Part shown: piece after piece, positions 14,423 to 62,361 of the stretch
Position numbering within the stretch: position 1 is the first letter of the stretch
Layout of the letters: each line of letters opens with the position of its first letter
Virus record (IMG/VR): IMGVR_UViG_3300050011_000393
Span: 1 to 64,000 of that record
Source of the DNA: a virus
Reading direction: 5' to 3' (one strand)
DNA length: 64,000 nucleotides
The notes under the pieces: model-generated
Database searches by the model: none
Seen by the model: only the letters and a program-made list of their open reading frames with translations
Told to the model about the DNA's origin: nothing
Made by a program: the position numbers and the translations under genes

Positions 14423-15418
14423 TTGAGCGATAAAGAAGAACCAAAAGGTTTAAGCGAAGTATTAGCCAGCATTGAAAAAACGCACGGCAAGGGATCTGTG
14501 ATGATGCTTGGCAGCAAGAAATTTGTGGCCATGGACGTGGTTCCTACTTCCTCCTTGGCGTTGGATAAGGCCCTTGGCGTTGGAGGCATCCCGCGCGGGC
14601 GCGTTGTCGAAATCTACGGTCCTGAATCTGGTGGCAAAACAACTCTGGCGCTCCACATCATCGCCGAAGCACAAAAACTCGGGGGCCAGGCTGCGTACAT
14701 CGACGCAGAGCACGCCATGGACCCTGTCTATGCCCGCCGTCTTCACGTAGATGTTGATCACATGATCATCTCGCAACCCGACAACGGCGAGCAAGCTCTG
14801 GAGATTACCAAGTCACTGGTGGAGTCGGGCAAGGTCGCTATTGTGGTGGTGGATTCTGTTGCCGCTTTAGTCCCGAAGGCGGAACTAGAGGGGGATATGG
14901 GCGATCCGCAGATGGGTCTCCAGGCGCGCCTGATGTCGCAAGCCCTTCGCAAACTGACGGGGATCACAAACCAGTCGAAGACGATTTTAATTTTCATTAA
15001 TCAGATTCGTGAAAAGATTGGCGTCATGTTCGGCAATCCTGAAACTACCACGGGCGGGCGCGCACTGAAGTTCTACTCCTCCATTCGCCTAGACATTCGT
15101 AAAACCGAGTTGATCAAAGACGGCGACAAGGTTATCGGAGCCAAGACTCGCATTAAAGTCGTCAAGAATAAAGTTGCTCCTCCGTTCACTGAAGCGGAAG
15201 TTCGCATTATGTATGGACATGGTATTTCCCACGAAGCGGATCTGATTGTTCTTGGTGAATCGCAGGGCGTGCTCGAAAAGACAGGCTCGTTTTTCTCATA
15301 TAAAGGCCAGAAAGTAGGCCAAGGATTCGAGCAAGTTCGCAATTTCTTGTTGCAAAACGCAGAAATTGCTGCTAAAATCGAAGCGGATTTGAGAGCCATC
15401 ATTTTCAAAAAGGAATAA
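14423..15418 (+). CDS. recA: RecA recombinase
   Basis: [52 protein letters not shown]. Confidence 0.97.
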
Positions 15419-23315: not shown

Positions 23316-23334
23316 GACTTTTCATATCATAAGT
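23316..23334 (+). promoter_or_regulatory. GACT-N8-CATAAGT motif
   Basis: Exact copy upstream of the endonuclease gene. Confidence 0.65.
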
Positions 23335-32803: not shown

Positions 32804-32822
32804 GACTAAACCATCCATAAGT
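32804..32822 (+). promoter_or_regulatory. GACT-N8-CATAAGT motif
   Basis: Exact copy. Confidence 0.65.
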
Positions 32823-34297: not shown

Positions 34298-34316
34298 GAC
34301 TAATCAAACCATAAGT
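34298..34316 (+). promoter_or_regulatory. GACT-N8-CATAAGT motif
   Basis: Exact copy. Confidence 0.65.
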
Positions 34317-35890: not shown

Positions 35891-36771
35891 CGGACCTGGT
35901 GATCGGCTTCGCCGCAAATTTCACCTGGAAAGACCTCGAACCCTTCGCTGTTTCTCTTGCCCGATCAGGGTATACAGGAAAAAAAGTTTTGTTCGCGCAA
36001 CGGTTGACTCAAGAGGCATGCGACTTTTTGACGTCTTTCGGCTTTGAATTACTTCCTCTTCCCGTGCTTGAGTACTCCGACCCTGAAATTACGAAGGGCG
36101 GGTACTTCGCTTACGTGGCGCGCTTCCTCTTGATTCATCGCTACCTGTACGACAACCCCGATTATAGATTTGTGGTGTGCGCCGATACGCGTGACGTCAT
36201 ATTCCAGCACGACCCGATGGCATGGATCGAGAAAAATATCGGCGACAAAGGTATCGTCGCGGCGTCCGAACATATTTATCACTGGGCCCAAAAAGGAAAC
36301 ACTGACTGGGTCATGAAGAATTTCAAGGAAGTCGACTCTTGGATGATGTCTCAGCCCGTGTATTGTTCTGGTCTGATCTCGGGGCGCGCAGACTACATCC
36401 GAGACTTGGCCATGAGCATTTATTTGATGGGCCGCGCACTAAGCGGAAATACCTGGGGAGCAGACCAGCCATCATATAACTCAATCATACACCAGAAAGC
36501 GTACGCGGACGCAACTCTGGTTCCATCCATGTCCGATGCGTACTGCCTACACTTGGTAGTGGTGGCTTTTGAAGAATATCGCAAAATGATGACCGATGCT
36601 CCCCCTCCAGTTCAGTTTGGGACCTGCTCGTCTGATGGCATCAACCCGCCTAATATGTGGGACTACGACCTTCGGGACCTGTCTAATTTCTCGGTCATTC
36701 ACCAATACGACAGAATGCCGAAGCTGGCCGAACAGATTCGCGCGAAATATAAGATGGGTTCGGAAAAGTGA
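35887..36771 (+). CDS. GT-A fold glycosyltransferase-like protein
   Basis: ADTRDVIFQHDP, CSG, ADQ..YN, IHQYDR. Confidence 0.78.
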   Translation: MTDLVIGFAANFTWKDLEPFAVSLARSGYTGKKVLFAQRLTQEACDFLTSFGFELLPLPVLEYSDPEITKGGYFAYVARFLLIHRYLYDNPDYRFVVCADTRDVIFQHDPMAWIEKNIGDKGIVAASEHIYHWAQKGNTDWVMKNFKEVDSWMMSQPVYCSGLISGRADYIRDLAMSIYLMGRALSGNTWGADQPSYNSIIHQKAYADATLVPSMSDAYCLHLVVVAFEEYRKMMTDAPPPVQFGTCSSDGINPPNMWDYDLRDLSNFSVIHQYDRMPKLAEQIRAKYKMGSEK

Positions 36772-36788
36772 CTTGTTCCTCCATAAGT
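36770..36788 (+). promoter_or_regulatory. GACT-N8-CATAAGT motif
   Basis: Exact copy at the head of the tail gene block. Confidence 0.7.
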
Positions 36789-44171: not shown

Positions 44172-44190
44172 GACTTCTTTCCCCATAAGT
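44172..44190 (+). promoter_or_regulatory. GACT-N8-CATAAGT motif
   Basis: Exact copy. Confidence 0.7.
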
Positions 44191-49718: not shown

Positions 49719-49737
49719 GACTTATTCAACCATAAGT
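49719..49737 (+). promoter_or_regulatory. GACT-N8-CATAAGT motif
   Basis: Exact copy. Confidence 0.7.
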
Positions 49738-55242: not shown

Positions 55243-55298
55243 GCAATAGTACTTTAGTACCAAGAGTTTGGCGCTTTAAGACTTTTCATTACATAGTT
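55243..55298. promoter_or_regulatory. Divergent control region: GTAC-N4-GTAC box and GACT-N8-CATAGTT variant
   Basis: GCAATAGTACTTTAGTAC at 55243-55260; motif variant at 55280-55298. Confidence 0.6.
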
Positions 55299-55515: not shown

Positions 55516-55788
55516 GTGACAGATTTCGAGACGCTGGTAATAAAAGAACTTGGCGACATTCGGGCAATCGGCACGGCCACCGCGCAAAGAGTCGAGTCAC
55601 TGGAGAATCGGCTATTCGATGGAAATTCCAGCGTAGTGAGCACTCTGCAGGCCGACATTCAAGAAATTAAAGACGACCGCAAGTCCGATGCACGCTGGAG
55701 TCGAATACACAACGTGGCACATTACAGCTTGACGCCTATCGTAGTTGCTCTCCACGCCATTGCTCGTCATTTTGGAATCGAAATTTAA
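55516..55788 (+). CDS. Coiled-coil protein with C-terminal hydrophobic helix (holin-like)
   Basis: Heptads followed by LTPIVVALHAIA. Confidence 0.45.
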   Translation: MTDFETLVIKELGDIRAIGTATAQRVESLENRLFDGNSSVVSTLQADIQEIKDDRKSDARWSRIHNVAHYSLTPIVVALHAIARHFGIEI

Positions 55789-57146
55789 TTCAAAATTCCC
55801 CAGAATTTGCGCTCGGCGGCAGGCGTTTTAGGCAAACGCTTAACGCTGGTTATATCCGCGCGCACCAAGAAATATCGGCCAGTAGGAAAATTCACCCGGA
55901 CGATTACGCCTTGTCGATCAATCTTCGTCACTGTGCCACAATATTTCGCCGCGTCTCCCGCTAGGATTTCGACAAAATCTCCGCCATGAACCCCCAATAA
56001 AGTTGGGGGATTGTGCCCACCCATCATTTGGAGCACGTCTGCATGTGGAACCTCGACGGCATGCATGAATGTGCCCTCGTCGTCGCAGACTGTAGCCATT
56101 TCTGCAATTCCTCGAATCCGAGTCAATTTGCGCGTCAGAGCGGCCGAGGAACTCCGCGCGAAGATATATCCAAATGCCAGTTCGCCATCGGCGTTCAGCG
56201 GCGCGAAAATTTGCGCGGGCTTCTTGCCGAAAATGCGTTTTCCTTGTTCGCGGAGCGTCGGCATAATTTGCGCCATGCGGTGCTCCGACGAGATCTCCAA
56301 CATGCACCACGGCGTGTCCTCGAGGCTATCGATGCGGCCGAACGACACGAGCGGAGAAGTCTCCAGCGGCGGCGCGGCAAAGCGCATAAATTTGACGCGC
56401 CGGTTTCGTGCCTGGCACCGTTTGCTGAGTCCTGCGCCAGTCAGAGAAGCCTGGTGAGTCAAACTGCGGAGATATGCGCCGACGGCAACGGCCTGTACAT
56501 TCTTGTCCGCAAGAAGTTTCTCGATCACGGGTCGAAAGATTTTACGGACGGCAGGGGTCGGCATAAGGAAATATCGGGCCACGTCCGAATAGTTCTGGGT
56601 CTCGGCATAGGCGACGATCATGTCCGTCAAGGACCCATGTTCCGTGGATTCTACGCCAGCTTTGCGGAGAATAGGTCGCAGAATCTCCGCATCCGGTTTC
56701 ACGCCCAACAAGATCAAGGACCCAATGGACTGTTCGATGATGCGCAAATTTTGCCATACCCTTGTTTGTATAAAGCCGTGAACCTGGCCGATGAAACTCT
56801 GCGATTTGCCCAAGAGCCAATATTCGGCGAACAGCTCCTGAAACTCAGGCCGCAGGCGTTCGAGCAACGGAATTAATTTGTCAGGATAATCACGCGCGAA
56901 CGATTTGAAGTCGATGATGCTGCTACTCTCAGGGAGAGTCTCGGCGGACAGCAGAGGATTCTCTTCATTGCGATTAAAGGCTTCGTAACTCGCAGCGTCA
57001 GAGACGTGGTCCATGTAGGATTGCACGCCCTGGGTACCATCCCCCTTCATGCGCGCTTTGCCGCGTAACCACTTGCCGCCCCAAGCGCCGTAACTTCTCC
57101 GGCCTAACCCCCGAGGTGCCCGCCACCCGCACGAATATGTCTTCAT
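55785..57146 (-). CDS. Sigma-region-4-like/HTH fused to a NusG-like (NGN+KOW) transcription factor
   Basis: LERLRPEFQELF...GKSQSFIGQVHG..QTRV; WCMLEI...FGYIFA...IRGI; GDFVEILAG.AAKYCGTV. Confidence 0.65.
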   Translation of the reverse strand: MKTYSCGWRAPRGLGRRSYGAWGGKWLRGKARMKGDGTQGVQSYMDHVSDAASYEAFNRNEENPLLSAETLPESSSIIDFKSFARDYPDKLIPLLERLRPEFQELFAEYWLLGKSQSFIGQVHGFIQTRVWQNLRIIEQSIGSLILLGVKPDAEILRPILRKAGVESTEHGSLTDMIVAYAETQNYSDVARYFLMPTPAVRKIFRPVIEKLLADKNVQAVAVGAYLRSLTHQASLTGAGLSKRCQARNRRVKFMRFAAPPLETSPLVSFGRIDSLEDTPWCMLEISSEHRMAQIMPTLREQGKRIFGKKPAQIFAPLNADGELAFGYIFARSSSAALTRKLTRIRGIAEMATVCDDEGTFMHAVEVPHADVLQMMGGHNPPTLLGVHGGDFVEILAGDAAKYCGTVTKIDRQGVIVRVNFPTGRYFLVRADITSVKRLPKTPAAERKFWGILN

Positions 57147-57451
57147 AGATTTCTCAGCCCCTTGATTTTCTTCTGTGCGATTTTCCAGTATCGATTTACC
57201 ATTGTTTCAAAAACCGCGCCGTGTTCCAGCAGAGGCTCGGCCACATGTAACATCTCGTGGACCATGGTCTTTCCCCAGCGTTTGTGGCCCGCGTTTATAA
57301 AAATCACGGGGAGCATGAAGTCGTTGTCGAACAAGGTGACACCATTGCAGCGGGGAATCCAGGGGTCGTCAATGACGATGACGACCGCTGACGGGAGATT
57401 ATTCTTCCAAATGATTTTATTGAGTTGCTTGTATGCGGTTTCTGGCCTCAT
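57143..57451 (-). CDS. SprT-like zinc metallopeptidase
   Basis: YKQLN..IW...LP; TMVHEMLH...HGAVF. Confidence 0.75.
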   Translation of the reverse strand: MRPETAYKQLNKIIWKNNLPSAVVIVIDDPWIPRCNGVTLFDNDFMLPVIFINAGHKRWGKTMVHEMLHVAEPLLEHGAVFETMVNRYWKIAQKKIKGLRNL

Positions 57452-57472
57452 GAAAACAAGGGTACTAAAGCA

Positions 57473-57655
57473 CTAGTACCCTGTCAAGTCTTTTTCTTCT
57501 TCGGTAAAATACCGCTCGATGCCGTCGCGATAGCGGCGTTTTACATTGCCCGCCCAGCCTTGTTCTGGGTGCTCGACCACAGCACGCTCTTCCCAGTCGC
57601 GCACTTTACCAGGAAGAGCGGGCGGGAATAGCCAAGATAGGATACGTGCAATCAT
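57473..57655 (-). CDS. Small hypothetical protein
   Basis: Coupled TAATG with the upstream gene. Confidence 0.45.
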   Translation of the reverse strand: MIARILSWLFPPALPGKVRDWEERAVVEHPEQGWAGNVKRRYRDGIERYFTEEEKDLTGY

Positions 57656-61291: not shown

Positions 61292-61849
61292 CTATGCGAG
61301 TACGAGATTGTCCATGGCATCTTGGGCCATAACACCATCATTTTCTTGTAGATAGACGAAAGCCGAACTCGGAGACTTGTGTCCCAAGAATTCACTGACC
61401 GCGCCGATGCGCTTCGTCACGGCATATACTGCCATGGCGGCACTGTGGCGGAAGACGTGCGAGTGAGCATAGCTGCTGTGAACGCCAGCAACGGCAAAAT
61501 ACCGAACCAGCGTTTCGTTGTAGTACTGGCGGCTGAGTCCGCCGAAGATCTTGGACAGACCCTTGGTCGCCGCCAGGGCGATCAGGGGAGTCATGTCGAC
61601 CGTCGGGTCCTCCGAGATGTGAAGGTTGCGCACGACAACTTTACCGCGCTTGGCTGCGCCGACCCGAACGACCCACTTGCCGTCGCGCTGGAAGATATCT
61701 TCCCCGCGCAGGTCCAGCATCTGGGAGACGCGCGTGCCAGTGTAGAACATCACCAGCATGGCCATGTGGTGCAGGTGGCTCTTCTCGGTCTTGGCTTCTT
61801 GCGCCGCTCGGAAGACTTTTGCCAGGTCGCTCTCGGGTAAGTAATTCAT
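61292..61849 (-). CDS. Minimal tyrosine recombinase (catalytic domain only)
   Basis: TGTRVSQ (R), K, HVFRH (HxxR), LGH, AFVY; AGGAGG SD. Confidence 0.85.
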   Translation of the reverse strand: MNYLPESDLAKVFRAAQEAKTEKSHLHHMAMLVMFYTGTRVSQMLDLRGEDIFQRDGKWVVRVGAAKRGKVVVRNLHISEDPTVDMTPLIALAATKGLSKIFGGLSRQYYNETLVRYFAVAGVHSSYAHSHVFRHSAAMAVYAVTKRIGAVSEFLGHKSPSSAFVYLQENDGVMAQDAMDNLVLA

Positions 61850-61900
61850 GTCAGTTGCCTCCTGAACTGAACCCATTATGGGGGAATGACCTGGCCTAGC

Positions 61901-61919
61901 GCAATAGTACGAAAGTACT
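61901..61919. promoter_or_regulatory. GTAC-N4-GTAC operator upstream of the recombinase
   Basis: GCAATAGTACGAAAGTACT. Confidence 0.7.
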
Positions 61920-61944
61920 GTTTTTCGACTAGTACTAGGGGTGG

Positions 61945-62361
61945 TTACTCTGCCCCTTTTGTCTTGATGAAGTGCTCGATTCTGTTTACGCCTGCGCGCG
62001 CCCTGCCTGCTTGGGATCTGGCTCGAACATACGCCGTTGCGTATTTGGCGGGCCACTCCGAACGAAAGAATAACCGAAGTCTTTGGTTTGCGGTTAGCCC
62101 AAGCGCGCGTGTTGCGAAGATCTCCACGGAATGGCCTGAAGGGAGATCGTCAAAGCTGCTGGGTTTCTTCAAATCGAGTTTGTGCTCGAGGACGTAAGCC
62201 GCTCCAGCCAGACAGCAGGCGGTTCCGCAGAGGGCTTTTTCATCCCCGAGAACAGAAGAGGACTTGGTTGGCTGCAGCCAGTCGGACATGTCAAATCGAC
62301 CTTTTTCTTGCAGGATGAATTTCTGAATCTTTCTCAGCAGCTTTGTATTAATTCCGCTCAT
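61945..62361 (-). CDS. Hypothetical phage protein
   Basis: FDMSDW...CGTACCLAGAA motif; AAGGAG SD. Confidence 0.6.
   Translation of the reverse strand: MSGINTKLLRKIQKFILQEKGRFDMSDWLQPTKSSSVLGDEKALCGTACCLAGAAYVLEHKLDLKKPSSFDDLPSGHSVEIFATRALGLTANQRLRLFFRSEWPAKYATAYVRARSQAGRARAGVNRIEHFIKTKGAE

Follow-up and report, generated by a model that had tools for sequence, protein, structure and literature searches.

No transcription factor other than NusG/Spt5 is conserved across all of life, and its specialised paralogues find the operons they serve either through the NusG N-terminal (NGN) domain itself or through RNA. Plasmids and prophages are known to carry NusG-like genes (PMC7593976), and short NusG/RfaH-like proteins are present in uncultured phages as well. 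Here we analyse a 64,000-nucleotide stretch of viral DNA, positions 1 to 64,000 of IMG/VR record IMGVR_UViG_3300050011_000393 (hereafter the window), which forms the initial 64 kb of the 96,667-bp record of an uncultured phage, judged 97% complete. On its minus strand, at 55785-57146, lies a gene whose product, P0001, joins a sigma region-4-type module to a NusG-type module, an assignment drawn from the open reading frame (ORF), its translation, its homologues and their alignment, A1. We believe this fusion protein to be the best candidate for the switch that brings host polymerase onto the middle and late genes of the phage.

The reading frame, 453 open codons followed by a stop in the ORF call and translation of the window, is a genuine gene of a populous family and not a chance frame. 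In a collection of 5.8 billion proteins P0001 has 152 homologues at E <= 1e-3, the best 120 of which share 49-73% identity over 73-100% of the length (mostly at least 90%); many of the homologues are located on contigs of 93-107 kb, and 53 columns are invariant in A1, an alignment of 32 family members. A related-locus search with P0148 returned no viral contig. A few homologues carry the Joint Genome Institute (JGI) label 'transcription antitermination factor NusG'; no homologue comes with a precomputed Pfam domain, and PHROGs gives no family for the fusion protein. Compared with Pfam by itself, the protein gives only a sub-threshold match to KOW2_Spt5 (E 0.014), and the A1 profile retrieves from the PDB sequences solely the KOW segments of Spt5, NusG and uL24 (E 0.001-0.1). 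Since the sequence models are this weak, the domain assignment is carried by the predicted structure: a full-length AlphaFold2 model built on 32 sequences, with a predicted local distance difference test (pLDDT) score of 77.5 and with residues 1-42 and 65-76 disordered. In what follows, the parts of the protein are given with their window coordinates, all on the minus strand.

The C-terminal half, residues 273-440, is predicted to be a complete NusG/Spt5/RfaH module, with an NGN and a KOW domain. All of the top 24 Foldseek matches in the PDB are NusG/Spt5/RfaH chains (probability 0.99-1.00, E down to 4.5e-6). The NGN domain, with the NusG N-terminal fold, occupies residues 273-382 (56001-56330) on the evidence of VIA-align and Foldseek, and superposes on residues 6-117 of E. 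coli NusG with a root-mean-square deviation (rmsd) of 2.8 A over 98 residues (Z 8.2), on residues 1-101 of RfaH at 2.6 A and on the archaeal Spt5 NGN at 2.2-2.3 A; across the NGN domains of E. coli, M. tuberculosis and A. aeolicus NusG, RfaH and Spt5, the range is 2.2-3.0 A over 79-101 residues, with Z of 7-8.5. Structural alignments that take in NGN and KOW together span 142-158 residues. The KOW domain itself (residues 385-440; 55827-55994) is assigned from structural alignment, from Pfam KOW-type matches at E 0.002-0.02 and from PDB profile matches to the KOW of NusG, Spt5 and uL24 (L24/L26). The family also retains the KOW glycines and a G-Y-I-F-A-R strand with an invariant Tyr, which we take, from the E. 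coli NusG sequence, to be typical NusG motifs. Thus the NusG/RfaH pattern that a preliminary description of this stretch had read here, with GYIF at residues 326-329 and a KOW glycine motif at residues 389-406, is borne out by the fold, and the Foldseek check that it proposed finds both NGN and KOW folds in the predicted structure. The KOW domain is modelled as a beta-barrel with no trace of an RfaH-type helical state, in a single AlphaFold model that still leaves room for fold switching.

Modelled alone with 56 relatives (alignment A2), the N-terminal half reaches a pLDDT of 88.8, and in this model residues 82-150 superpose on region 4 from over 20 different sigma factors, with Z of 8-10 and rmsd of 1.1-2.8 A over 57-65 residues (VIA-align). 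Sigma region-4 matches, among them SigD, SigF, SigL, BldN, SigB, sigma32, sigma28 and sigmaE, head that search across 48,161 chains. The top PDB sequence match of the A2 profile is likewise region 4 of SigF (E 0.066), aligned motif by motif, and stand-alone relatives of this half attain the Pfam model Sigma70_r4_2 (25.9 bits, with a cut-off of 25.7). Foldseek with the N-domain alone gave nothing at E <= 0.001, and the ESM Atlas gave low-score leads only, at 0.78 to viral Sigma70_r4 clusters. We conclude that residues of about 82-150 are, as modelled, a sigma region-4 fold with an HTH (helix-turn-helix); as a feature, this domain (HTH 1) covers residues 80-150 (56697-56909), placed by VIA-align, by the PDB profile and by Pfam matches in relatives. 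The sigma4-style HTH that the preliminary description had proposed is therefore upheld.

The same description had named a second HTH-like segment. The segment lies at residues 185-204, within a domain at residues 153-233 (56448-56690) that has HTH geometry in both predicted models, and its identity as an HTH is probable rather than proven. Its recognition helix bears a nearly invariant IRKIFRP; sub-threshold Sigma70_r4, HTH_1 and HTH_28 matches run across this part in relatives; and hhalign matches a sub-profile of HTH 1 to HTH 2 in register (P 0.0012, probability 19%). Ahead of HTH 1, in a loop of low confidence (pLDDT <50 at residues 65-76 of the full-length model), there is a short linear motif at residues 62-76 (56919-56963), strongly conserved in A1 and A2 and common to the stand-alone proteins of the N-module family. 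S67, E69, P72 and E73 are invariant in A1, and the S and E are nearly so in A2; the motif may be a docking peptide for some partner.

The view of the protein as a fusion is strengthened by a module search, in which the family profile was compared with 1.84 billion cluster representatives and returned 334 proteins at E <= 0.001. Apart from the full-length family itself, the matches fall cleanly into two groups. Profile positions of about 28-240 match stand-alone N-module proteins of about 240-280 amino acids, and positions 254-437 match residues 2-191 of C-module proteins of 194-755 amino acids, which have KOW matches in Pfam. The junction near residue 264, within a basic linker at residues 234-272 (56331-56447; profile match and consensus comparison), coincides with the start point of the stand-alone C-module proteins. 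Because each half is found elsewhere as a stand-alone gene, this is a true fusion, as the preliminary description had claimed, and on the strength of the profile matches the protein is an end-to-end joining of two partner proteins. One stand-alone N-module relative also scores 26.9 bits against the Phage_antitermQ model (cut-off 26), with no single stretch passing. In a further protein, P0171 (452 amino acids), the order is reversed, with NGN-KOW followed by HTH_38/GerE-type domains, from which it would follow that combinations of NusG with HTH domains arose more than once. We also observed a LAGLIDADG and/or intein-like insert in each of two long relatives, one of the N-module (P0253, 591 amino acids) and one of the C-module (P0209, 755 amino acids); inserts of this kind are usually found in essential, conserved genes.

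Among 50,697 GenBank phage records, the sole carrier of either module is the Tunturiibacter phage Tunturi_5, which carries both, unlinked. Tunturi_5 is a 309-kb jumbo phage with a host from the Acidobacteriota (PMC11924767). Its two genes, the C-module gp25, annotated 'transcription antiterminator', and the N-module gp346, annotated 'exonuclease', are separated by about 32 kb on its circular map. Since gp346 (PP885688.1, 301753-302487) matches the N-module profile at E 2e-100, its GenBank annotation as an exonuclease is probably wrong. Further jumbo-type contigs in IMG/VR were located with a back-translated KOW DNA pattern, and each of the five carries the C-module; in the three with a completeness of 69-100% the N-module is present as well, far from the C-module, and the two without it are fragments of 36% and 60%. 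Thus both modules co-occur in each of the examined genomes that is sufficiently complete and are fused in the 97-kb lineage, which by the Rosetta-stone argument suggests that the two partners work together.

What polymerase, then, would such a protein serve? The genome encodes an SU10-type portal, as in podovirus-type phages, together with a family-A DNA polymerase, a primase-helicase, RecA, an integrase-family gene, GroEL and three tRNAs. Sigma70_r2 is found neither in the fusion protein nor elsewhere in the 96.7-kb genome, with positive controls detected; the DxDGD catalytic motif of multisubunit-type polymerases is absent from all six frames of the 97%-complete genome; and the search of the genome for a T7-type polymerase was empty, with its controls silent too, so that this last result is weak evidence. 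The absence of a separate sigma factor or RNA polymerase, asserted earlier for the window, thus holds for the whole genome, with the same difference between the two sets of controls. With no phage sigma region 2 or polymerase found, the phage most likely depends on the host polymerase throughout.

The fusion gene belongs to an operon, comprising a small ORF, a SprT-like gene and the fusion gene, that lies behind a host-type promoter on the minus strand (57459-57487), TTGACA-N17-TACCCT, overlapped by a 22-nt palindrome and recognised from the sequence and from relatives. Its -10 box ends 7 nt ahead of the start codon of the first gene, and a TTGACA-N17/18-TAnnnT promoter is kept 6-18 nt ahead of the orthologous gene in five relatives (loci L010-L014), distances so short that some of these mRNAs must be leaderless or nearly so. 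A canonical promoter on this operon implies that the factor is made by the unmodified host holoenzyme, and we infer that it is made early. In three genomes a GTAC-containing palindrome sits in the promoter spacer, where by its sequence and position it is likely to be an operator; the genome holds further canonical TTGACA-N16-18-TAnnnT sites, and several sites of this class have such a palindrome.

A second class of promoter-like site is found on the opposite strand. The motif GACT-N8-CATAAGT has 14 sites in the genome, all 14 on the plus strand and none on the minus strand, and allowing one mismatch the pattern has 8 matches within the window where 0.6 are expected by chance. The sites lie in tight gaps 9-100 nt ahead of the next start codon, often right after the preceding stop codon, and the genes behind them belong to plus-strand replication, virion, lysis and other operons. 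Candidate sites in the window, all on the plus strand, were located by pattern search at 23316-23334 (14 nt ahead of a start codon), 32804-32822, 34298-34316, 36770-36788, 44172-44190 and 49719-49737 (12 nt ahead of a start codon); of these, 34298-34316 and 49719-49737 are further supported at orthologous gene starts and 36770-36788 at orthologous positions. At 938-956 there is another candidate, a variant of which is retained at the orthologous position in three relatives. A variant site at 55280-55298, with CATAGTT as its second box and a GTAC palindrome ahead of it, heads a group of small plus-strand genes. The copies at window position 34298 and at positions 75702 and 95704 of the full record (G000) share a roughly 20-nt identical upstream stretch that ends ...TTACAGAAACT before GACT, which would point to a separate subclass or to recent duplication.

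Five related phages, too, have the motif on a single strand; in four of them it is common enough for a judgement, and there that strand is opposite the fusion gene, as in the window's phage. A relaxed pattern gives strand biases of 16:1, 12:0, 11:2 and 9:3 in four genomes at a spacing of 8, with no comparable bias at 7 or 9. Orthologous gene starts, that of the portal gene among them, keep GACT and the 8-nt spacing, and the second box varies (CATAAGT, TATAAGT, TATAATT, TATATTG, TATAGTA); in this drift among TATAAT-like forms it resembles a -10 element. The motif sites have no conserved -35. If the start of the second box is taken as -12, GACT spans about -24 to -21. We considered reading the motif as a sigma-54-like -24/-12 promoter and rejected this, since the GG and GC dinucleotides are missing; a promoter for a single-subunit polymerase was likewise rejected, since no such polymerase was found.

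The host-type promoter on the operon and the opposite-strand, positionally conserved motif sites fit a functional reading, in which the fusion protein is a phage transcription factor for the host multisubunit polymerase that drives the middle and late plus-strand genes; we would give this reading an even chance. Consider a newly infected cell. Host sigma-70 holoenzyme would make the factor early, from the canonical minus-strand promoter. The sigma region-4 domain and the second HTH would then bind duplex DNA at the phage promoters, replacing -35 recognition. In such a promoter an A/T-rich stretch would precede GACT, and a -10-like box (here CATAAGT) would follow after 8 nt, without a -35; the HTH module would read GACT and perhaps also the A/T-rich DNA just upstream. 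The NGN domain would thereby be positioned beside the polymerase, one linker away, and would take the clamp-helix site on the beta-prime subunit once sigma region 2 leaves at promoter escape, given that NusG-family NGN domains and sigma share one binding site on the polymerase (PMC7593976). From there the factor would travel with the elongation complex and keep the polymerase processive, much like RfaH and other NusG paralogues, with KOW as the usual platform for coupling or antitermination along long operons.

A number of observations weigh against this model. Four of its steps we infer: the role of the motif as a promoter, its reading by the protein, the docking of NGN on the clamp helices and the resulting antitermination. 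The Pfam model of the NusG NGN domain, PF02357, has no match in the fusion protein and remains sub-threshold in the stand-alone C-module relatives (16.6-17.3 bits, with a cut-off of 22.2; best E 1.7e-4), so that membership in the NusG/Spt5 family is based on fold and not on a sequence model; the second HTH, for its part, remains a probable one. Within the family neither the recognition helices nor GACT varies, and no covariation links them. Co-occurrence of gene and motif, which the preliminary description had put forward as a check, does hold in the related phages, on the opposite strand in four, and is confounded by shared ancestry; moreover, the exact motif is absent from Tunturi_5, which has the split pair. 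It is absent too from Tunturi_3, a phage of similar size with no match to the fusion protein, whose initial 50 kb are arranged differently. Intrinsic terminators do not exceed those in shuffled sequence, nor do they concentrate in the late region, and so for termination of the intrinsic type no need for antitermination can be seen. Sigma-70-type promoters are not enriched over shuffles either, and promoter and terminator scans say little here.

The main rival to a factor that activates at the promoter and then rides with the polymerase is a replacement for sigma, in which NGN occupies the beta-prime clamp helices from initiation onwards, where sigma region 2 would otherwise bind. The tandem HTHs would read GACT along with the duplex upstream of it, and host sigma-70 would be dispensable at these promoters. 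NGN and sigma region 2 share a binding site (PMC7593976), GACT lies about one helical turn from the -10-like box, which would suit an NGN-tethered DNA-binding domain at the upstream fork and is too short a distance for flap-bound sigma region 4 on a -35, no phage sigma was found in the genome, and in the window's phage most second boxes carry G at -7, a position at which sigma-70 requires T. The protein would then be a new promoter-specificity subunit, with a NusG-fold anchor at initiation and sigma-4-type HTHs on a compact promoter, the same molecule being kept for elongation; control of both phases would then reside in a single polypeptide, and in jumbo phages in a pair of partner proteins. 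The second box in relatives, however, drifts to the canonical TATAAT, which points to host sigma region 2. No NusG-family protein, moreover, is known to melt promoter DNA, and we consider the replacement of sigma unlikely and regard the promoter-specificity subunit as similarly doubtful.

The placing of the sites, on one strand and in tiny gaps between co-directional genes, often just after a stop codon, could also suit a pure elongation factor, for which GACT sites would be loading or pause sites within long transcripts, as ops is for RfaH, with polymerases starting at upstream sigma-70 promoters. Canonical sigma-70-type promoters do exist on the plus strand, for example near 407, 18901 and 32276. 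Nonetheless, a -10-like box at fixed spacing, together with near-leaderless start distances like those of the early promoter, fits initiation better, and fourteen reloading sites would be unusual; we judge this explanation quite improbable. About as improbable, in our view, is a factor that only takes over the host, its NGN and a flap-binding sigma-4 domain displacing host NusG and/or sigma and shutting down host transcription, with no specific role for GACT. Early expression would suit such an inhibitor, and the protein does resemble both polymerase-anchoring parts, NGN and sigma region 4; but both recognition helices are nearly invariant, as expected of DNA reading, and the 14 non-canonical promoter-like sites need a factor, for which no other candidate appeared among the proteins scanned. 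The functional reading we prefer remains that of a factor which activates middle and late promoters and then stays with the host polymerase.

Several further features of the locus bear on the gene itself. Its start may be M1 at 57146 or M33 at 57050, and the choice is uncertain: the ATG of M1 overlaps the stop (TGA) of the preceding gene as ATGA, and the basic N-terminus of the M1 type is retained in 20 of the 32 homologues in A1, while the database copy of the protein begins at M33. Residues 1-40 (57027-57146) form a basic Arg/Gly/Trp-rich tail, predicted to be disordered (pLDDT ~31), whose translation is accordingly uncertain. The preceding gene, at 57143-57451 on the minus strand, is a small SprT-like gene with an HExxH motif, assigned from sequence and synteny and translationally coupled to the fusion gene through the ATGA overlap; it is syntenic in five of six relatives. 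In the homologues P0028 and P0037 the SprT-like and fusion genes were called as a single ORF, and such a homologue has the SprT-like Pfam match. On the other side, two small plus-strand genes follow the variant site, the second of which (55516-55788) is conserved in relatives and meets the fusion gene tail-to-tail, ending on its stop codon, so that late transcription there would run antisense into the gene for the factor. Elsewhere in the phage we noted a GroEL-type chaperonin (G000 79190-80797), a protein with an ice-binding domain behind a motif site (G000 82280-83320), a full RecA (window 14423-15418) and the integrase-family gene (window 61292-62056).

If the proposed model is true, a NusG module wired to sigma-type promoter readers would be a third route of recruitment, and initiation-type and elongation-type control of host polymerase would be joined directly. 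The protein is a concrete candidate for the means by which a large and little-studied group of soil phages, kin of cultured Acidobacteriota phages among them, expresses middle and late genes while encoding neither polymerase nor sigma factor. With Tunturi_5, a cultured jumbo phage with the split modules and an available host, the idea is testable at the bench.

Comparison with described systems places the protein closest to RfaH, LoaP, UpxY, TaA and plasmid ActX, which like it have NGN and KOW. These paralogues serve a few long, horizontally acquired operons to which a signal in the leader sequence recruits them, and in its proposed role the fusion protein would resemble them in this too. They are small proteins, of about 160-200 amino acids, and the signal is read by NGN itself, on non-template DNA, or via RNA, whereas the fusion protein has a 250-amino-acid N-terminal module of sigma-4-like HTHs, of the type that binds duplex DNA. 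The lambdoid Q proteins share the logic of the proposed role, from a DNA element at the late promoter to engagement of the polymerase to travel. Neither NGN nor KOW is present in Q proteins, which act at the RNA exit channel, whereas the part of the fusion protein that would ride on polymerase is a NusG module; 6 of the 32 family members have sub-threshold matches to the Q model PF06530 (best E 0.0039), and no Q structure is among the top fold matches of the N-terminal half. The T4 factors MotA/AsiA, for middle genes, and gp55/gp33, for late genes, also replace -35 recognition at promoters with a -10-like box and a phage element, and they are split over two proteins, as are the separate modules of the jumbo-phage relatives. 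MotA is a double-wing domain and gp55 is sigma-2-like, and we found no relation of sequence or fold between the T4 factors and the fusion protein.

With region 4 of sigma-70 factors of the extracytoplasmic function (ECF) type, residues 82-150 share the fold and the L-x-x-x-x-E-L...Q..I/L layout. Compared with sigma factors as a whole, the fusion protein is without region 2 or 3, and with respect to the part that anchors to polymerase its domains stand in the opposite order; it is therefore no sigma factor. Tunturi_5 gp25 and gp346 are the same two modules, unfused, with an extra C-terminal part on gp25 and in a genome without the GACT motif. We found no publication on a NusG module fused to sigma-4-type domains, or on a phage NusG paired with them. 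We read the protein as a specialised NusG paralogue of a phage, with a built-in DNA-reading module of the sigma-4 type.

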